64,000 nt of DNA from Terriglobia bacterium (GTDB lineage: Bacteria > Acidobacteriota > Terriglobia > 20CM-2-55-15): NCBI GenBank assembly GCA_963664115.2, contig CAXWPJ010000012.1:512001-576000 (forward strand), given 5' to 3'. Shown here piece after piece: positions 2,040 through 62,984 of the stretch. The notes beneath the pieces were generated by a model that did not search any database, was not told the DNA's origin, and saw only the letters and a list, made by a program, of their open reading frames with translations. The first letter of the stretch is position 1. Each line of letters begins with the position of its first letter. Position numbers and translations under genes: made by a program.

Positions 2040-2079
2040 TTCTCAACGTCCGAGAAGATGATTTCTCAGGACTTGAGAA
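2040..2079 (+). repeat. 40-bp dif-like array site, intact
   Basis: TTCTCAACGTCCGAGAAGATGATTTCTCAGGACTTGAGAA. Confidence 0.95.
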
Positions 2080-2140: not shown

Positions 2141-2509
2141 TTAGTCAGCCAGTTGGACGAGCTGCAGTTCATTCCCGGACGGGTCCTTAAGGGTCGCTAG
2201 CCACCCGCCCCAATGCTGCTGCTCTGGTTCGCCAGAAAACTGAACGTCAAGAGCTGACAGCTGTTGATGCTTTGACCTAATGTCACCGACCGCAAACGAT
2301 ACTCCCGTGAAGCGACCAACCAATACTTGCTCATCTTGCGGTGCGTCTTTTGCCACGGCCTCGATAACGAGCTGGGGACCGCCAGCATTTAAGATACAGA
2401 CGCCATGATCGAGATCTTTCGTCTCCAGCGTAAGGCCTAATTGGTCAACGTAAAAGCGTTCGGCTTCCGCAACATCATTAACAAATATTCGCACTGCGCT
2501 GAGATTCAT
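2141..2509 (-). CDS. VOC/glyoxalase family protein (single-gene interval)
   Basis: VRIFVNDVAEAERFY...DPSGNELQL motifs; only gene between the sites at 2040 and 2582. Confidence 0.9.
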   Translation of the reverse strand: MNLSAVRIFVNDVAEAERFYVDQLGLTLETKDLDHGVCILNAGGPQLVIEAVAKDAPQDEQVLVGRFTGVSFAVGDIRSKHQQLSALDVQFSGEPEQQHWGGWLATLKDPSGNELQLVQLAD

Positions 2510-2581: not shown

Positions 2582-2621
2582 ATCTCAACGTCCGACAAGA
2601 TGATTTCTCAGGACTTGAGAT
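2582..2621 (+). repeat. 40-bp dif-like array site, intact
   Basis: ATCTCAACGTCCGACAAGATGATTTCTCAGGACTTGAGAT. Confidence 0.95.
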
Positions 2622-3837: not shown

Positions 3838-3869
3838 CGCTGGCCGCTTCAGGCGGGGCCTACTGCTTC

Positions 3870-3971
3870 CGCGCGACGGCCTGCGGCCGCGCGCGGATTG
3901 ACATAACACCCATACGGCGACACTGCCAGGGCTGCCATAGGTGCCGGACCCTGCTTGTTCCGCTTATCCGC
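3870..3971 (+). repeat. Family-2 repeat with XerD-like arm (copy A)
   Basis: Similar to 31058-31133, 31934-32035 and inverted 55476-55546; minus strand reads GTGTCGCCGTA-TGGGTG-TTATGTCAATC. Confidence 0.8.
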
Positions 3972-4395
3972 GCCGGACCTTCACATTGGCCGGTTTTAGG
4001 TCTCGATGGATGATCCCTTGCTCGTGTGCGGCCTCAAGGGCCTCGGCGATCTGTTTCGCAATAGGCAGAGCTTCATCAACGGGAATCGGCCCTTGTGTAA
4101 TACGGTCGGCGAGGGTCGGCCCCTCGACCAACTCCATCACGAGGGCGTGGACGCTGGTGGATTTTTCAAAGCCGTATATCTGGGCGATGTTCGGATGGTT
4201 CAACGTCGCCAGGGTTTTGGCTTCACGCTCAAACCTTGCGAGACGATCCTCATCCTTCGCAAACTCTTCAGGCAGCGTCTTGATGGCGACTTCGCGCCCA
4301 AGTTTCGTATCCCGCACACGCCACACTTCTCCCATGCCACCCTTACCTAAGAGCGTTGAGATCTCGTAGCGGCCGAGTTTGGTGCCGGATTCCAT
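3964..4395 (-). pseudogene. N-terminal fragment of a Hanks-type Ser/Thr protein kinase
   Basis: LGKGGMGEV, VAIK and HRDLKPAN motifs; ends before DFG, at the family-2 repeat. Confidence 0.9.
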
Positions 4396-4496: not shown

Positions 4497-4536
4497 TTCT
4501 CAACGTCCGAGAAGATGATTTCTCAGGACTTGAGAA
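4497..4536 (+). repeat. 40-bp dif-like array site, intact
   Basis: Identical to the site at 2040. Confidence 0.95.
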
Positions 4537-4556: not shown

Positions 4557-5168
4557 TCAGAGCCCTTTCGTCATTCGATAGAACTTCAATCCCGGTATAG
4601 CCAATCTCTTCGGCCACTGCGACTCGACGTTCATCCCGCGGCGCTCGTAGAATCGGCAAGCTCCCGCATTCCTAGCTGAAACGTCGAGGGATAGTCGAGT
4701 CGATCCGCTCGCACGAGCCCGATCTTCAACGAAGTCCATCAAGACGGAGCCGACGCCATCGCCGCGAAGTTCCTTATCAACAGCGATGGCTTGGAGGTAG
4801 AAATCGCCATCGGCGATTGAATCGACAATCCGCATGATTGGAGCAAACAGTATCTCTACGGTCCTCATTTGTAGATTGAATCTTCCGGCAGCCCGCTTCA
4901 GGGGTTGGCGCGAAGAACGGCGATGCTGCTCCGCGGTGTACACGCAGACTGTTCCCACGATGACGTCGTCACGTTCTGCGAAAGTCACATTTTGGTAGGA
5001 GAGGTCGTGGTCGGGCTGGGCGAACGCCGTGGCGACTATTTGCTCGGCGCGGCGACCGAGCCAAAAACGAAAGAATCCCTCGGCTGCTTGGTCAAGGTAG
5101 CGAGCAAATGCCAGACCTTCATCGAACGTGGGTTTGGCGGCCCTTAAGACTATCGAATGCCGATCCAT
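4557..5168 (-). CDS. GNAT family N-acetyltransferase (single-gene interval)
   Basis: YLQAIAVDKELRGDGVGS acetyl-CoA motif and N..A.RFYER.G; fills the interval between two sites. Confidence 0.9.
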   Translation of the reverse strand: MDRHSIVLRAAKPTFDEGLAFARYLDQAAEGFFRFWLGRRAEQIVATAFAQPDHDLSYQNVTFAERDDVIVGTVCVYTAEQHRRSSRQPLKRAAGRFNLQMRTVEILFAPIMRIVDSIADGDFYLQAIAVDKELRGDGVGSVLMDFVEDRARASGSTRLSLDVSARNAGACRFYERRGMNVESQWPKRLAIPGLKFYRMTKGL

Positions 5169-5211: not shown

Positions 5212-5251
5212 TTCTCAACGTCCGAGAAGATGATTTATCAGGACTTGACCT
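5212..5251 (+). repeat. 40-bp dif-like array site, intact
   Basis: TTCTCAACGTCCGAGAAGATGATTTATCAGGACTTGACCT, followed by kinase-tail remnant HWFEEPKERGPVP* on the minus strand. Confidence 0.95.
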
Positions 5252-30824: not shown

Positions 30825-30924
30825 GTTGCACGGCAGCTCAACGAGCGGCCACGCAAGACTCTGGAGTTCGCAACTCCGGCAGAAACATTTAATGCTTGTG
30901 TTGCATCGACCGGTTGATCTGAAT
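30825..30924 (+). mobile_element. IS30-family terminal remnant
   Basis: Encodes VARQLNERPRKTLEFATPAETFNACVASTG* and ends in IR GTGTTGCATCGACCGGTTGATCTGAAT. Confidence 0.85.
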
Positions 30925-30943
30925 TGATTTATCAGGACTTGAC
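30925..30943 (+). repeat. Array site, right half, abutting the IS30 end
   Basis: TGATTTATCAGGACTTGAC. Confidence 0.9.
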
Positions 30944-31057
30944 CCGTCATCTCTGTCTCCGCCAACTTCCCCGAAGCCGACTTCTGGGTCTCTAATACCG
31001 ACCATTCCTAAACACAAGGCGACTAGGGAGGAGTAATCGGGTGTTCTGCTTCGTGCC

Positions 31058-31133
31058 CCTCGACATAACACCCATGCCGCGACACTGTCTGCGCTCCGAT
31101 CGTCTTCAGACCCTTCTTATTCCGCTTATCCGC
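31058..31133 (+). repeat. Family-2 repeat (copy B)
   Basis: GACATAACACCCAT...GACACTG...CAGACCCT...CGCTTATCCGC. Confidence 0.7.
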
Positions 31134-31855: not shown

Positions 31856-31933
31856 TTCGCAAACTTTCTCTGAACGTTGCCAGTATCATTAATAGTGCAA
31901 ACCCCAAGCGGTACTCTAAAAATCAGAGAGCGC

Positions 31934-32035
31934 CGCGCGACGGCCTGCGGCCGCGCGCGGGTTGAAATAACACTCATACGACGACATTGCCAGCGCTGAC
32001 ATAGTCGTCAGACCCTGCTTGTATCGCTTATCCGC
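31934..32035 (+). repeat. Family-2 repeat (copy C)
   Basis: Colinear with 3870-3971. Confidence 0.8.
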
Positions 32036-32175
32036 CTCGCAGCCCTCCGAGAGTTAAACCTCGACAAACGCCGTTTCGTTTACCGATCCAAATTCAACGT
32101 CCCAGAAGTCGGCTTCTGGCAACCAGTTCTAGCTTTGGAACGAGTGGATTGGAAGCAATGATTGAATCAGCGGGA

Positions 32176-32215
32176 TTCTCAACGTCCGAGAAGATGATTT
32201 GTCAGGACTTGAGAC
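32176..32215 (+). repeat. 40-bp dif-like array site, intact
   Basis: TTCTCAACGTCCGAGAAGATGATTTGTCAGGACTTGAGAC. Confidence 0.95.
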
Positions 32216-34531: not shown

Positions 34532-34571
34532 CTCTCAATTTCCGACAAGATGATTTCTCAGGACTTGACCG
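34532..34571 (+). repeat. 40-bp dif-like array site, intact variant
   Basis: CTCTCAATTTCCGACAAGATGATTTCTCAGGACTTGACCG, followed by a kinase-tail remnant. Confidence 0.9.
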
Positions 34572-35145: not shown

Positions 35146-35166
35146 TCCTCAACGTCCGAGAAGATG
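35146..35166 (+). repeat. Array site, left half (split by IS30)
   Basis: TCCTCAACGTCCGAGAAGATG; right half at 36419. Confidence 0.9.
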
Positions 35167-36415
35167 ATTCAGATCAACCGGTCGATGCAACACCTGCGTT
35201 TAATGTCTCTGCCGGATTAGCGAAGTCCAGCGTCTCACGAGGTCGCCCGTTGAGCTTCCTTGCGATCATATCCAAATGCTCCTGTGAGTGAACCGACAAG
35301 TCCGTACCTTTAGGGAAATACTGTCGGAGCAAACCGTTCGTGTTTTCGTTCGAACCCCGTTGCCAGGGACTCCTCGGATCGCAAAAGTAAACGGCAATGT
35401 CGGTGGCCAGAGTGAACCGTTTGTGATTGGCCATTTCCAATCCGCGATCCCAGGTCAGTGTTTTATAGAGTTCGGTCGGGAGTTTGTCTGCGTGTTCGAT
35501 CAGCGCGTTGATGACGGTTTCGGTTTCCTTATTCGGAACCTTCACCCGCATCACGTACCGGGAGAAACGTTCGACCAATGTCGCAATGTAGGTGTTGTTC
35601 GAACCCGCTATGAGATCCCCTTCCCAGTGTCCGGGGACCGCGCGATCTTCAACCGAAGCCGGGCGCTCACGGATCGATATCAGATCCGGGATCTGCCCGC
35701 CACCCCGGCCTTTGCGACTGGCATGCTGGGACCGGCGAATCGTGCGTTTGGTCCGTAGATGCTGTGTCAGTTCTTTCTTCAGAGCCCCGCGGGCCTGGAT
35801 GAAAAGGCTGCGATAGATCGTTTCGTGTGACACGTAAAGTGACTCGTCGTCTGGATATTCGCGTTTCAGCCAACCCGCAATCTGTCGCGGTGCCCAATCC
35901 TCCCGGAGCTTCTCTTCGACGATCCCGCGTAAGCTGGGATAGCGGATCAGTCGACATCTCTTCGGGCGGTGAGCCCGTTCCCATGCGCGTTCATCCGCCT
36001 CCAACGCTCGATAGTTATCATAGCCCCCATTGCGACCGATCTCCCGACTGACTGTGGAGGGTGTACGCGACAGCGACTCGGCAATTGAACGGATCGATCC
36101 CTTGGCGGCAATGCCTCGGGAAATCTCTTCACGCTCGGCGAGGGTCAGCGCCCGCTTAGAGCGGCATCGTGTCCTGGGACAGATTCCACCATACGGTGCG
36201 ATCTGACCATAAACCGAAGAGCCCTCCTTTCCGAACACACGTCCGATCGCTTTCAGACTCTCTCCCCGCTGCCAGCGAATCCACACCTCGTCTATATCGG
36301 CGAGTGTGTAGCCTCGCCGCACCCGGTCTTTACTCTGTTTCTTCCGTCGTTTCTTACGCATACACTCCACCTCCTCCTTTTAGGTACAGTGTTGCATCGA
36401 TCTGTTGAGACCACC
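35167..36415 (-). mobile_element. IS30-family IS (transposase 35174-36370)
   Basis: GHWEGDL, TWDRGLE and WQRGSNENTNGLLRQYFPK motifs; imperfect 27-bp terminal IRs. Confidence 0.95.
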
Positions 36416-36418
36416 TCG

Positions 36419-36436
36419 TTTCTCAGGACTTGACCT
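36419..36436 (+). repeat. Array site, right half (split by IS30)
   Basis: TTTCTCAGGACTTGACCT. Confidence 0.9.
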
Positions 36437-36712: not shown

Positions 36713-36752
36713 TTCTCAAGGTCCGAGAAGATGATTTCTCAGGACTTGAGAA
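36713..36752 (+). repeat. 40-bp dif-like array site, intact
   Basis: TTCTCAAGGTCCGAGAAGATGATTTCTCAGGACTTGAGAA. Confidence 0.95.
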
Positions 36753-40658: not shown

Positions 40659-40695
40659 TTCTCAACTTCCGACAAGATTTATCAGGACTTGAGAA
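40659..40695 (+). repeat. Array site with a 3-nt deletion in the core
   Basis: TTCTCAACTTCCGACAA-GAT-TTATCAGGACTTGAGAA. Confidence 0.9.
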
Positions 40696-41058: not shown

Positions 41059-41098
41059 TTCTCAACGTCCGAGAAGATGATTTGTCAGGACTTGACCC
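41059..41098 (+). repeat. 40-bp dif-like array site, intact
   Basis: TTCTCAACGTCCGAGAAGATGATTTGTCAGGACTTGACCC, then ELKERVPVP* remnant. Confidence 0.95.
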
Positions 41099-41531
41099 AG
41101 GGGAATTAGGGAACCGGCACACGTTCCTTCAGTTCGGTGGCGCCGGCGATGGCCGTTTGGCGTGCCCTCATACGAAAACAACAACCATAACGGAGGCTCC
41201 GTCCCTTGAGACTCCGGCCACCCTCTATCCGTTCGGCCTCTGAATTTCCTCGTGCGGAATTCTTTCGAGCAATTTTTTCAACTTCAGTAAAGGGATCATG
41301 GCGAAGTTGAAAAGCCTCTACATTCGGTTGATGGCCTGCGAAAGAAAGTGCTTCCCGACCCGAAAAGACCCCCCCAAAAAAAACTGGACGAATTACAGAT
41401 ATTAGGGATATTGTTTCAATCACAAATAACAGAATCTTTCCAATGTACAAATTTCTGAACGTATTCCGGCCGGAATTACGTCCTGTTTGGTTCATAGGAG
41501 CGTCGACAAACGCGAGTCTAAGGAGGACCCT

Positions 41532-43164
<1,633 letters not shown>

Positions 43165-43169
<5 letters not shown>

Positions 43170-46099: not shown

Positions 46100-47041
46100 T
46101 CACGACTCTATCGCGAAGTCCATCCCCAATAAGCTCTCGCGCAGGAGAGCAGTGTCGCCAATATCATCGCCATATAGGACACCAATGACGGCGGCGTGGA
46201 GAGCACGAAATCGCGCCATGATTTGGATCGGCTTTTCGACCGCTCCATAGCTATCCCAAAATACTTCGCGACCCTCGGGTGGCAGAAAACCGAACGCAAT
46301 AGCCAAATCCATACTGGGGCTTCCTAGGTGGATGTCGCCCCAGTCAATCACGCCGCTTGGCAGTCCAAAGTTGTCCACAAGGATATGCTCCGCTGAAAAA
46401 TCGCCGTGTGACAATGTGTTCAACCGCGGTTGAAAGTCCGATGACATCTGTTCAACGATCCGTTCCCAAGGTGAAACGTCAGCAACCAATCCCTTTCCTC
46501 GAATCGTCAGAAGACTTGAGAGCAACTGTGGAATACGTTTTCCCATGTCAGCTCGGCCAAATTTATCTCCCGGAATTTCCAGATCTCCCGGATCAATGGC
46601 ATGTAGAGTTGCTAAGAAATTCGCTAAGGGAGCAGCAAGTTCCTTCCTCTGCTCTCGCGTCAATCCAACACTCAGTGCCGTGGTGCCTGGAAGAAAGCGA
46701 TAGCCCGCAAACGGCCAATCATACTCTTGTGTTGGCTTACCAACCCATCTTGGTACTGGGATAGGGAAAGGCAACTGAGCTGCAATTCGAGGAAGGACGC
46801 GAGTTTCCGTCTGCAGCAGTTCCACCGCTATCTCTCGGCGAGGAAACCGGAAAACCCAAGTCCTGTTCACTACGTAGGCCGTATTGTCCCAACCCTCACC
46901 TAGAAGTTGGATATGCGCAGGTCGAAGCTCCGGGAATTGGCTTTCGATCAGACGAACGGCCGCATCTGGCATCACGATATGCTCAGGTAGCCAAGGTTTA
47001 CCGGTAGGCATTACTGAAGAGAGTACCAGTCTGGAGTTCAA
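46100..47041 (-). CDS. Aminoglycoside phosphotransferase-like kinase (start probably 47011 or 46972)
   Basis: GEGWDN, VFRFPR, HGDFSAEHIL and IDWGD motifs; single-gene interval. Confidence 0.9.
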   Translation of the reverse strand: MNSRLVLSSVMPTGKPWLPEHIVMPDAAVRLIESQFPELRPAHIQLLGEGWDNTAYVVNRTWVFRFPRREIAVELLQTETRVLPRIAAQLPFPIPVPRWVGKPTQEYDWPFAGYRFLPGTTALSVGLTREQRKELAAPLANFLATLHAIDPGDLEIPGDKFGRADMGKRIPQLLSSLLTIRGKGLVADVSPWERIVEQMSSDFQPRLNTLSHGDFSAEHILVDNFGLPSGVIDWGDIHLGSPSMDLAIAFGFLPPEGREVFWDSYGAVEKPIQIMARFRALHAAVIGVLYGDDIGDTALLRESLLGMDFAIES

Positions 47042-47074
47042 CGTCCGAGAAGATGATTTCTCGGGACTTGAGAA
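47035..47074 (+). repeat. 40-bp dif-like array site, intact
   Basis: AGTTCAACGTCCGAGAAGATGATTTCTCGGGACTTGAGAA. Confidence 0.95.
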
Positions 47075-47697: not shown

Positions 47698-47737
47698 TTC
47701 TCAAGGTCCGCGAAGATGATTTCTCGGAACTTGACCT
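47698..47737 (+). repeat. 40-bp dif-like array site, variant
   Basis: TTCTCAAGGTCCGCGAAGATGATTTCTCGGAACTTGACCT, then INIVLNWFEELKDRVPVP* remnant. Confidence 0.9.
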
Positions 47738-48445: not shown

Positions 48446-48485
48446 TTCTCAATGTCCGAGAAGATGATTTCTCGGGACTTGACAC
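48446..48485 (+). repeat. 40-bp dif-like array site, intact
   Basis: TTCTCAATGTCCGAGAAGATGATTTCTCGGGACTTGACAC. Confidence 0.95.
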
Positions 48486-49109: not shown

Positions 49110-49313
49110 TGTGCAGAGCCCCGACGAAATCGTCATGGAAGCGCTGTCAAGTTAAGCTGACTGGTGGCGTTTTGGCCCCCCTCCACCACTTCTAACTTGC
49201 GTACTGAGTCTGAAAGGCAAGAGTTAGAGGCAATGAGCGGGTCAAGTGCTGCCAAACGACCTTCCCGTCATCTGACCAACGCGCCTTGTTTCGGCCATTT
49301 GCCAAATGACGCC

Positions 49314-49338
49314 AAGATGATTTATCAGGACTTGAACT
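49314..49338 (+). repeat. Array site, core plus right arm only
   Basis: AAGATGATTTATCAGGACTTGAACT, followed by a degenerate kinase tail. Confidence 0.85.
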
Positions 49339-51815: not shown

Positions 51816-52490
51816 GTCGAGTAGACCCGGGGAATTTCACCCCGAGTCCCTCACAGAACCGTGCTTGAACCTCTCGATTCACACGGCTCTTGCCAGCCGT
51901 TCGCCGACCACCTCACGGTGGGGGGCCGACACCCGATGAATCCGGCTCCTCCCGCTTGCGCGGTTGGCCAGTTCCAAAGAGCGAGCTGGCTCATCCCCTT
52001 CGCTCCCCTCCCATTACAAGAGGTTCATCACTACTACAGGATGATCCGCCCCTGAACTCCGCATCCGTACTCTCGCCCTCGTGGTTCTGGCCACTTGTGG
52101 CTTCTCCGTTAGCATCGAAGTTCAGGTTCCCACGTTCCGCTCAACCGCCTCTTGGTAAGCTCAGGCCACCTCTCATGCCGGAGGCCACTCCGCCCGTAAA
52201 CAGGTTCCGTCGGAGCTCGTCCCGCAGTATCTTCTCCCTGCGGTTTTGGCCATCGTCTTTAAATTTTCGACACTTCAACAGTGGTTCCCTTTCGGTCCTC
52301 TTCTTACCAGTCACCTGACCCAGTCATCGCCGGGCCTTTTCCTTCTGCGCTCACGACCATGGCTTTTGACCACAGCCGCCAGAGGTGGTTTGAAACCGAC
52401 GCCTGTACGCCGGCTCCGAGGGGCCCTCCCTCATCAGTTGAGTAGTTACGCACTCGATGACCTTGCGGCCCCCGAGCACTCGTGGCACAC
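51816..52490 (-). ncRNA. ORF-less group II intron (675 nt)
   Basis: 5' GUGUG; domain V GAGCCGUGUGAAUCGAGAGGUUCAAGCACGGUUC; domain VI ending ...CUACUCGAC; removing it restores an array site. Confidence 0.92.
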
Positions 52491-52517
52491 AGAAGATGAT
52501 TTATCGGGACTTGACCT
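52491..52517 (+). repeat. Array site, right part (split by group II intron)
   Basis: AGAAGATGATTTATCGGGACTTGACCT. Confidence 0.9.
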
Positions 52518-56083: not shown

Positions 56084-57265
56084 TCAGGAAGAATCGAATC
56101 CCCTCCTTTCAAGTGGCCACCGGATCTGGGCCGCGGTGAGCCGCTCCCCGATCGTCATGGCCGCGCCGCAGTTGGGACAGCGCCAGGAGTTGGGGCGTGC
56201 ATCGGTCGATCGTTCAGATGTCTGAGTCGCAGTAGCACCTCCTAACCAATGCCGGCACAAAGGCAGCAGTGAACCACGATGGCGGGCTGAGAGAAAACCA
56301 AAGAACCGGATGCGGACGAAGCGGCGCGGCAAGGTGTGGGTGAGAAAGCGGATGAGAAACTGTTCAGCCGGAAGCGTCATGTTGCGGGGTGCGTGCTTGT
56401 GCCGGGAGTCTTTCCAGCGAAACGTAACCTGACCGTCCTGGAGATCGACGAGGCGGTGGTTGGAGATGGCGACCCGATGTGTGTAACGGGCCAGATAGTG
56501 GAGTACGTGTTTGGGCCCGCCGAATGGACGCTTGGAGTAGACGACCCAGTCGATGTGATGGAGCGGGCCGATAAAGGCCGCGAATCGTTTCGGGTCGTTT
56601 AATGGGGCCAGATCGCCATAGAAACGTAGCTCTCCCCGCTTGAACGATCGCCGAAGCCGGTCCAGAAACTTACCCCGAAACACTTCACTGAGCACCTTCA
56701 CTGGAAGGAAGAACCGATGGCGGGCCCGAATCCATCGGGTGTGGTCGCCCGACAGGCCACCGGCAGGAACGACACAATGGATGTGGGGATGATGACCCAG
56801 CGTCTGACTCCAGGTATGGAGCACGCTGAGCACGCCAATCTGGGCGCCCAGATGTTTCCCGTTGGCGGCCACTTCCTGCAACGTGGCCGCGCTGGCCCCA
56901 AACAGCAGGGCATAGATCACACGTTTGTTCTGATAAGCCAACCGCGCCAGGGGTTGGGGCAGGGTGAAAACGACATGCACGTAGCGAGTCGGCAGTAACT
57001 CCCCGGTGCGATCCGTCACCCACTGGTCACGGGCACGGGTCTGACACTTCGGGCAATGCCGATTGCGGCACGAGTTGTAGGAGAGGGCGCGATAGTCGCA
57101 GTTCGATTCCGAGCATCGGTCCCGGTGGCCTCCCAGCGCCGCGGTGCGACACTGCTGAATAGAGTTGAGGACGCGCAACTGACCGCCATCGAGCCGGCGA
57201 TGCGCCACCAGGTCGGAACCATGACGACGGATGATGTCGGCCACCTCAAGGGTGGGCCGGGTCAC
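56084..57265 (-). CDS. IS91-family (Y2/HUH) transposase with zinc-binding domain
   Basis: YNSCRNRHCPKC, HVVFTLP, HPHIH and YLARYTHR motifs. Confidence 0.95.
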   Translation of the reverse strand: MTRPTLEVADIIRRHGSDLVAHRRLDGGQLRVLNSIQQCRTAALGGHRDRCSESNCDYRALSYNSCRNRHCPKCQTRARDQWVTDRTGELLPTRYVHVVFTLPQPLARLAYQNKRVIYALLFGASAATLQEVAANGKHLGAQIGVLSVLHTWSQTLGHHPHIHCVVPAGGLSGDHTRWIRARHRFFLPVKVLSEVFRGKFLDRLRRSFKRGELRFYGDLAPLNDPKRFAAFIGPLHHIDWVVYSKRPFGGPKHVLHYLARYTHRVAISNHRLVDLQDGQVTFRWKDSRHKHAPRNMTLPAEQFLIRFLTHTLPRRFVRIRFFGFLSARHRGSLLPLCRHWLGGATATQTSERSTDARPNSWRCPNCGAAMTIGERLTAAQIRWPLERRGFDSS

Positions 57266-58146
57266 CGCAACCCGACTTCGCTTGAATCCAATAGCGGGAT
57301 CTGATCCAGCGGATTCTTTATGGCCTGTAAGTGCCGGTTCGACAGATGCAGATACAGCGTGGTGTGCTTCAGGTCAGCGTGGCCCAACAGGAGTTGAATC
57401 GTGTAGAGATCGGTCCCGTCTTCCAACAGGTGCGTTGCGTAGCTGTGTCGCAGGCTGTGAGGTGAGATCCGCTTGCGGAGAATCGCGCGCTCACGCGCTT
57501 CCCGGCAAGCGCGCCACACCATCTTCGTGGAGATCGGTGCATCGACCCGACGGCGCCGTTTCATGCCCGGAAACAGGTAGGTCTTCGGCTTCATCCAGCG
57601 CGCGTACTGGCGCAATGTCTCCAGTAGTCGTGGACTCAGCGGCACGGCCCGGTCCCGTCCGCGTTTCCCACCCCGGATCTGAATCACCATCCGTGCGCTG
57701 TCGATGTCCTCTATTTTGAGGCACACCAGTTCACCGCGACGCATCCCGGTGCCGTAGAGCGTCATCAGCATCGCCCGCTGCATCAACGTGCGACACCCAT
57801 CGATCAATCGGGCCACTTCCCCACGAGAGAGCACGACCGGCAATCGCCGATCCTGTTTCGGCATCGGTGTGTGTTCGAGCAGATAGGTCCGATTCAGTGT
57901 CTTAACGAAGAAGAAGCGTAATGCCGAGACGTGTTGCGCCACTGTCCGGGCCGACAACCCCCGATCTCGAAACAGGTGCACCTGGTACTGCCGGATCTCG
58001 TCGGCTCCCAATCGGTCCGGCGCTCGGCGGAAATGTCGGGCAAAGTTCCCCAGGATTCTCAGGTAGGTCTGTACCGTTCTCGGAGCGTAATTACGTCGCT
58101 GGAGCTCGTCCAGCATCAACCTGCGGTTGGGCGTCATTCGGATCAT
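57262..58146 (-). CDS. Tyrosine recombinase with N-terminal SAM-like domain, coupled to the IS91 transposase
   Basis: YGTGMR, HSLRHSYATH and LLGH...TTLY catalytic motifs; 4-bp overlap with the transposase. Confidence 0.95.
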   Translation of the reverse strand: MIRMTPNRRLMLDELQRRNYAPRTVQTYLRILGNFARHFRRAPDRLGADEIRQYQVHLFRDRGLSARTVAQHVSALRFFFVKTLNRTYLLEHTPMPKQDRRLPVVLSRGEVARLIDGCRTLMQRAMLMTLYGTGMRRGELVCLKIEDIDSARMVIQIRGGKRGRDRAVPLSPRLLETLRQYARWMKPKTYLFPGMKRRRRVDAPISTKMVWRACREARERAILRKRISPHSLRHSYATHLLEDGTDLYTIQLLLGHADLKHTTLYLHLSNRHLQAIKNPLDQIPLLDSSEVGLR

Positions 58147-58256
58147 AGAGATATCCCTCCTGTATCTCTACAACCCGATACCCTCCCTCAGTCAGGCCCG
58201 GTCCTTCACCACGCACGCAAAGCGTCCGCCGCGCCAGCGGCTTAGTTCAAACGACA

Positions 58257-58273
58257 TTGTCGGACGTTGAGAA
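58257..58273 (-). repeat. Inverted left arm of the array site
   Basis: Reverse complement TTCTCAACGTCCGACAA. Confidence 0.85.
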
Positions 58274-58292: not shown

Positions 58293-58332
58293 TTCTCAAG
58301 GTCCGAGAAGATGATTTATCAGGACTTGAACT
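58293..58332 (+). repeat. 40-bp dif-like array site, intact
   Basis: TTCTCAAGGTCCGAGAAGATGATTTATCAGGACTTGAACT, then INIVLKWFEELKERVPMP* remnant. Confidence 0.95.
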
Positions 58333-62441: not shown

Positions 62442-62481
62442 TTCTCAACGTCCGGGAAGATGATTTCTCAGGACTTGAGAA
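62442..62481 (+). repeat. 40-bp dif-like array site, intact
   Basis: TTCTCAACGTCCGGGAAGATGATTTCTCAGGACTTGAGAA. Confidence 0.95.
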
Positions 62482-62944: not shown

Positions 62945-62984
62945 TTCTCAACGTCCGGGAAGATGATTTGTCAGGACTTGAGAA
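62945..62984 (+). repeat. 40-bp dif-like array site, intact
   Basis: TTCTCAACGTCCGGGAAGATGATTTGTCAGGACTTGAGAA. Confidence 0.95.

Follow-up and report, generated by a model that had tools for sequence, protein, structure and literature searches.

A dispersed 34-bp repeat at the joints of shuffled gene modules in a Terriglobia bacterium, a possible divergent dif-like target of XerC and XerD

The window analysed here, a 64,000-nucleotide stretch of one contig of a Terriglobia bacterium, carries small gene modules separated by copies of a 40-bp imperfect palindrome, the first of which (2040-2079) encloses a 28-mer at 2046-2073, where a preliminary description of this DNA had placed it (Table 1). 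Thirteen matches with at most three mismatches were found in the window, all on the forward strand (0 in 100 shuffled sequences), and a profile search returned 15 full sites, every one with the core GATGAT. The 3-nt core deletion noted earlier at 40659 was confirmed; GATGAT had also been given as unchanged in all other intact copies, but a half-site with the core TGTCGT lies in the window itself, at 58249-58273 on the reverse strand. Below, the host genome (G000) comprises 4.9 Mb in 12 contigs (C-numbers), other G-numbers denote other genomes that were compared, and site positions 1-40 refer to the 40-mer, positions 4-37 corresponding to 2043-2076 in the first copy.

Table 1. Sites and associated features in the window (positions in the 64,000-nucleotide stretch)
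Feature	Position	Strand	Remarks
Class A site, 34-bp footprint (14-6-14)	2043..2076	+	28-mer 2046-2073; palindrome 2040-2079
Glyoxalase-family gene	2141..2509	-	Sole gene called in module between sites 2040 and 2582
Class A site	2582..2621	+	Profile
Ser/Thr kinase N-terminal fragment	3964..4395	-	Gene start and site 4497 are 102 nt apart; kinase head ends the module
Class A site	4497..4536	+	Profile
GNAT acetyltransferase module gene	4557..5168	-	675 bp between sites
Class A site	5212..5251	+	Kinase C-terminal tail remnant comes after
Class A right half	30906..30945	+	Behind IS30-type end
Class C site, 11-6-11, core GCCGAC	30965..30992	+	Related class, more dif-like
Class C site	32097..32124	-	Inverted relative to 30965; pair brackets AT-rich segment in A-A module
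Class A site	32176..32215	+	Profile
Class A site	34532..34571	+	Profile
Site split in core by IS30-family element	35146..36436	+	A-type left half, B-type right half
IS30-family transposase in split site	35174..36370	-	
Class A site	36713..36752	+	Right flank as at G000 C10:212438 over 200 nt; left flanks unrelated
Class A site with 3-nt core deletion	40659..40695	+	
Class A site	41059..41098	+	Profile
Class A site	47035..47074	+	200-nt left flank identical at two other places; right unrelated
Class A site	47698..47737	+	Profile
Class A site	48446..48485	+	Profile
Class A site, degenerate left arm	49299..49338	+	
Class A right part	52478..52517	+	Behind repeated foreign end
IS91-family element in class B site	56084..58146	-	Y2 transposase 56084-57265 and tyrosine recombinase 57262-58146
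Class B left arm and core TGTCGT	58249..58273	-	Back to back with site 58293
Class A site	58293..58332	+	Profile
Class A site	62442..62481	+	Profile
Class A site	62945..62984	+	Profile

The site had been described as an 11-6-11 element with an invariant core, and both statements needed amending. The two 11-bp arms and the 6-bp core stand, but among 222 class A sites (the host genome plus relatives) positions 4-37 were conserved except for 8, 14, 15 and 26, and less so at 9, 29, 32 and 33, with positions 4-6 and 35-37, which lie beyond the 28-mer, conserved at 91-97%. Since positions 38-40 vary with the adjoining module, the footprint is 34 bp (14-6-14) rather than 28. Invariance of the core is a property of class A only (15 of 15 full sites in the window); the genome carries other cores, with GATGAT in 139 of its 184 sites, TGTCGT in 12, GGTCGT in nine and something else in 24. 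We refer to sites with the core GATGAT as class A and to the 21 with TGTCGT or GGTCGT as class B, the two having opposite orientations to genes. In a scan that left the core free (334 sites), the right half of the core was GAT in 259 sites and CGT in 47, the CGT cores showing 11 different forms of the left three bases, and relatives added the cores CCGGAT, GAGGAT and GATCGT on unchanged arms.

Profile matches above threshold numbered 184 in the host genome and zero in the reversed genome. They form 45 clusters which together occupy approximately 0.46 Mb. Sites were present in nine of 35 genomes of the host's family, belonging to two genera: four congeners carried 107 (G002), 62 (G003), 17 and four, and four of five genomes of the second genus carried one to six each. 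None of 400 other genomes of the phylum had a site and no viral contig matched the repeat, while eight short metagenomic contigs did. An Rfam search with two loci gave no match, and the literature search (subscription papers and supplements aside) found no description of these sites in Acidobacteriota. Most of the 45 clusters are distant from tRNA genes, which disposes of tRNA anchoring. A partial sample of relatives gave no platform gene shared by the array regions of G000, G002 and G003, the recurrent families being kinases, transposases and cargo, with no recombinase among them.

Most neighbouring sites less than 10 kb apart are direct repeats (88 A-A pairs of 133). Inverted A/B neighbours account for 35 of the 133: in 20 the two sites face each other across a module, and in 15 they stand back to back, 12 of these being 18-19 or 108 bp apart. 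Genes beside A sites mainly run against the direction of the site, by 88 to 46 on its right side and by 88 to 36 on its left. A kinase gene recurs at the module borders. Kinase starts follow B sites in the same direction at a distance of 76-92 nt (17 of 30 B sites lead into one) and A sites in the opposite direction at 75-143 nt, and a kinase C-terminal tail lies on the right flank of 60 of 154 A sites. Of 29 kinase-domain ORFs, 20 have a site within 500 bp and no more than six reach 800 amino acids; the full-length protein combines the kinase with PD40 propeller repeats. Many of the modules seem to have been built on this kinase-beta-propeller module as their chassis. An ORF at 41487-43169 of the window, encoding a collagen-like part followed by repeats of about 33 amino acids, lies in an A-A module and is interrupted by an IS.

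Several pairs of sites recorded rearrangement of the modules between them. A 1,249-bp segment occurs twice, from site to site, at 99.76% identity, with outer flanks agreeing at 6 of 40 positions per side, and the 675-bp GNAT module of the window is also present in G001, where it is again bounded by sites, is 90.5% identical and has a different neighbour on its left. In 20 pairs of sites, which are not independent, several being linked by a C6/C11 duplication, one 200-nt flank was shared at 97% identity or more and the other at less than 55%. Positions 1-3 never differed in the 13 pairs that share the left flank, nor did positions 38-40 in the seven that share the right, which places the exchange within positions 4-37. 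The repeat is thus very probably a recombination joint between shuffled modules. Neighbouring sites were identical in four of 87 cases against 3.1 expected, so a CRISPR-like duplication of the repeat upon insertion was rejected, and an 827-bp pair first taken as one module was dropped on account of 181 differences. Near-identical multi-module stretches, reflecting either duplication or strain mixture, also occur at C6:24226-48384 and C11:3905-58411, and at C2:487-5361 and C2:161973-166846. Public sequencing runs, screened as contigs only, gave no usable excision signal, the joints observed at sites coming from other copies.

Where the exchange falls within the site varies. A need for core identity had been pointed out earlier, and as the mark of a fixed crossover it is not fully borne out; the junctions do lie within the site and the cores match, but the arm that should travel with the shared flank differs in recent pairs. 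Position 15 of the left arm differed in six of the 13 left-sharing pairs and position 26 of the right arm in four of the seven right-sharing ones, a core-fixed crossover being contradicted in about three of six informative recent pairs within the host genome and an attC-type crossover after position 7 likewise by the flank-sharing pairs. The crossover point within the site is therefore not fixed. Such freedom anywhere within positions 4-37 is also what passive shuffling would produce, had some element spread the sites once and had homologous recombination, gene conversion and site-targeting IS elements moved the modules ever since; the long kinase tails and IS copies supply extra homology, and 23 of 43 left-half sites end in IS ends of four kinds. 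We nevertheless hold this explanation improbable: the arms are conserved across two genera, the cores fall into discrete classes, A and B sites keep opposite orientations to genes, and junctions between unrelated flanks lie inside an element of only 34 bp.

The IS ends at the 43 left-half matches belonged to two IS110-family elements (seven and six cases), IS30-type elements (seven) and IS91-type elements (three), the core of the repeat being what IS elements target. The two IS110-family elements, present in six and seven copies, insert at fixed points of the core (C5:47886-49028 and C11:1468-2739), and the site is expected to appear as the target in their guide RNAs. The tyrosine recombinase at 57262-58146, suggested previously as the cognate enzyme, is the companion gene of an IS91 transposase, and the element made up of the two has itself inserted into a class B site. 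This element and six identical copies of a sister element all start with a GAAC end that lies within a site or close to one, and the recombinase had no counterpart among the 11 recombinase loci of G003. The whole element (56084-58146) is likely to be a passenger rather than the source of the enzyme.

The preliminary description had read the arms as varying without compensatory pairing, and had named a miniature attC folded from a single strand as the alternative. At the most variable mirrored pair (positions 15 and 26) the bases were complementary in 58 of 157 distinct A sites against 59.5 expected, bearing out the first statement, so a double-strand binding site fits the data better than an attC hairpin. 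The larger alignment yielded discrete core classes and no arm covariation, where a freely varying core with covarying arms would have spoken against the recombinase target. The model hairpin was adopted by 71 of 147 sites and 63 of the 147 folded more weakly than -5 kcal/mol; when the right arms were re-dealt among 128 A sites the mean energy was unchanged (-5.94 vs -5.94 kcal/mol) and 26 of 60 re-dealings were as good, which weakens the attC alternative further. It remains true that the copy at 2040 gives a good fold on either strand (z of about -5), that the staggered GTCC/GGAC match is conserved and that the genes beside A sites mostly point one way, as might be expected of a site working as a folded strand with two extrahelical bases, whether as an attC of an integron integrase or as a REP hairpin of an HUH enzyme. 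A one-base stagger of the arms is, on the other hand, known from duplex sites, namely difSL and difH of the single recombinases XerS and XerH (PMC5357621, as far as its available text goes). The base at the supposed AAC crossover (position 8) is variable (C in 127, G in 46 and T in 46). The integron integrase, which was also considered as the enzyme, lies approximately 195 kb from the nearest site of the host genome, beside an attC-like element of different look, and G003, G004 and G007 yielded no such integrase. None of 12 Y1/RAYT loci of relatives had a site, although a variant site does lie about 200-300 bp from a RAYT-like gene in the host genome. Action on a folded strand consequently seems highly improbable to us. 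The attC-like palindrome 3' of the integrase gene (L003:5728-5818; C9 near 713,700) is unrelated in sequence to the repeat.

What stands from the earlier reading is a double-stranded target of the tyrosine-recombinase type, which is supported by the discrete asymmetric 6-bp cores, the lack of arm covariation and the junctions within the site. The Bacillus subtilis dif sequence used for comparison there agrees with that in the accessible part of PMC3025954, and the counts given, 9 of 11 for the left arm and 7 of 11 for the TTATC right arm, were reproduced by eye. All counts of dif likeness for class A and class C arms were made in this way on printed sequences. The repeat is not, however, the host dif, with which a comparison had been proposed: its 184 copies are dispersed, while the host has a separate, canonical single site at C2:108,118, the skew maximum of contig C2 being at 99,962. 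Of 45 related genomes, 15 gave exactly one site under a strict dif pattern, and all five members of the genus were among these. Single-copy hits of the repeat in G007 and G017 were likewise discarded as dif, both genomes having their own dif elsewhere and the G007 hit being accompanied by a B site at a distance of 1 kb. At 2887-2914 the window also contains a 28-mer that resembles dif, looks canonical and has the inner ATAA/TTAT motif, and the strict search of the host genome gave only this and the true dif. The left arm of the repeat matches that of the host dif at 8 of 11 positions, together with the outer five bases of the family, and agreement of the right arm with the host XerD arm is limited to 5-6 of 11, in keeping with the earlier remark that a canonical XerD arm is absent.

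A third class of sites, with the core GCCGAC, gave 29 profile hits in the host genome against three in the control, and its pattern was present in 17 of 151 class genomes, compared with a single one for the reversed pattern. The copy at 32097 agrees with the left arm of the repeat at 10 of 11 positions and with the host dif arms at 9 of 11 and 7 of 11 (by eye); judged on sequence, class C bridges the repeat and dif, and it is possibly a class-wide, pdif-like family. In the host genome and 16 other genomes of the class, these sites often form inverted pairs around one gene. A separate family of repeats of about 100 nt (D16) has copies at 3869-3971, 31031-31133 and 31933-32035 of the window, two of the three sitting in the class C-bounded segment.

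Some class C sites are near-perfect palindromes and adjoin a recombinase of another family, which suits a homomeric enzyme and counts against Xer. The family is that of P0001, a 316-amino-acid tyrosine recombinase (C5:52189-53154) with very many relatives in Acidobacteriota. Its module (C5:52059-53270; L001:8060-9271) places the gene between two inverted, near-consensus B sites that both open outward onto a kinase start; it was covered in three of four runs, its depth being below that of the flanks in one, and was uncovered in a related strain, an observation that decides nothing. The sites might thus belong to a dedicated, mobile, homomeric recombinase of this family, arrays without P0001 being orphaned as are integron arrays without an integrase. 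Class C-like sites are enriched within 500 bp of family members (seven hits in 65 kb vs 24 in 805 kb beyond) and were found at three of 19 further family loci, with none in reversed controls, and staggered arms are a known trait of the single-recombinase sites difSL and difH (PMC5357621). Recent within-genome junction pairs, moreover, were seen in the host genome and in none of the 103 G002 or 32 G003 sites sampled. Against P0001, G002 and G003, with their 107 and 62 sites, yielded no family member even at E 1e-12; no A or B site occurred near 55 plus 16 homologue loci and 19 more; class C genomes (17 of 151) and family genomes (25 of 151, including one marked unpublished, G503) share three members against 2.8 expected; and recombinase genes are known as cargo of dif modules (PMC12907356, within its accessible text). 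We regard P0001 as an unlikely owner of the sites.

Among the recombinase loci compared with the host genome (11 of 11 in G003 and nine of 24 in G002), orthologues of XerC and XerD occur in all three genomes (79-92%); a P4-type integrase is shared by the host and G003 at 70% identity and has a possible counterpart in G002. XerC and XerD are therefore the clearly shared candidates, and, by elimination and by the graded likeness of the sites to dif, their action on the repeat is the best single reading, in which we place even confidence. In favour of such an Xer-like action on duplex DNA are the opposite orientations of A and B sites, the absence of arm covariation, the equally good folding of re-dealt arms and the lack of a replichore bias in cluster orientation (17 vs 23 clusters relative to the replication skew). 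Our confidence goes no higher because the inner ATAA/TTAT motif, which is said to determine binding and cutting by XerC/XerD (PMC11705084, in the part available), is poorly kept, with T at position 15 in none of 222 A sites and A at position 26 in 64 of them. The three bases outside each 11-bp arm, conserved in the repeat and unconserved in the flanks of dif, also count against Xer. The XerD proteins of the host's whole family lack the glutamine of the RQ helix motif, which was found in four outgroup genomes (L131-L153); this change speaks for Xer, and its extension to site-free genera against.

We propose that the 34-bp repeat marks module joints and, with chances that we rate as balanced, is a dif-like but divergent site at which the host XerC/XerD recombine duplex DNA. 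XerC would bind the left arm and XerD the right; sites with like cores would recombine, an exchange between directly repeated A sites excising or inserting a module and one between B sites, or between inverted sites, flipping it. The distinct B core may serve to separate B sites from the A sites that point the other way. The junction might migrate along the 34 bases of homology or be resolved among them, and this would account for the lack of coupling between arm variants and flanks. Against the model, directly repeated pdif sites with equal cores gave no deletion in one test (PMC11705084, as excerpted). Taken further, and tentatively, the housekeeping XerC/XerD of this lineage may have become an engine that moves cassettes across the whole chromosome without an integrase. 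About 200 34-bp sites would be kept deliberately degenerate so that they are not mistaken for dif; their cores would form a two-address code in which A stands for excision and insertion and B for inversion and promoter-bearing heads; and the Ser/Thr kinase-beta-propeller module would be the chassis for new genes. We consider this whole picture possible but doubtful. Should the host Xer proteins drive the sites, these would show how far Xer specificity can stretch and how a couple of hundred of them are kept from disturbing dimer resolution; should another enzyme do so, that enzyme would be a cassette recombinase of a kind not yet described. In both cases, such direct arrays with no linked integrase would escape the tools used to find integrons.

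To our knowledge, gene modules driven by Xer have been described almost only from Acinetobacter, with sites that are close to dif and alternate in orientation.

The closest known system is that of the Acinetobacter dif modules (pdif/xrs), found on Rep_3 plasmids and in chromosomal 'dif module islands' (PMC13141974, PMC12907356 and PMC11705084, from the accessible portions of which the following features are taken). In both systems short sites with an asymmetric 6-bp core part small gene modules, no recombinase is needed on the array, each orientation has its own cores and the main dif is separate; both also feature toxin-free accessory cargo, recombinase genes as cargo and IS elements that aim at the sites. 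The opposition of A and B sites relative to kinase starts resembles that of C/D and D/C pdif sites (PMC13141974). The differences are the approximately 180 chromosomal copies here against 22 in a reported Acinetobacter chromosome, the prevalence of direct repeats (88 of 133) against strict alternation, the 34-bp footprint, the lack of a canonical XerD arm, the Acidobacteriota-type host and the kinase-gene chassis. The repeat thus has the two arms and the 6-bp core of a pdif site, and lacks the ATAA/TTAT motif with the XerD arm as well as the alternation; failing these two defining features, it was not filed as pdif. With integrons it shares arrays of directly repeated sites, mostly co-oriented genes and reordered modules, but it has no linked integrase or attI, no RYYYAAC/GTTRRRY ends and no arm covariation, its core is conserved, and the genome has a separate IntI locus. 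Unlike REP/REPIN elements, with none of the 12 Y1 loci of relatives bearing a site, the copies are not clustered around a RAYT gene. The 11-6-11 inner layout, the dif-like left arm and the one-base stagger of the arms finally recall chromosomal dif and difSL/difH (PMC5357621, in its available part), from which the repeat differs in being multi-copy and dispersed, with no adjacent gene of the xerS or xerH type among the recombinases listed.
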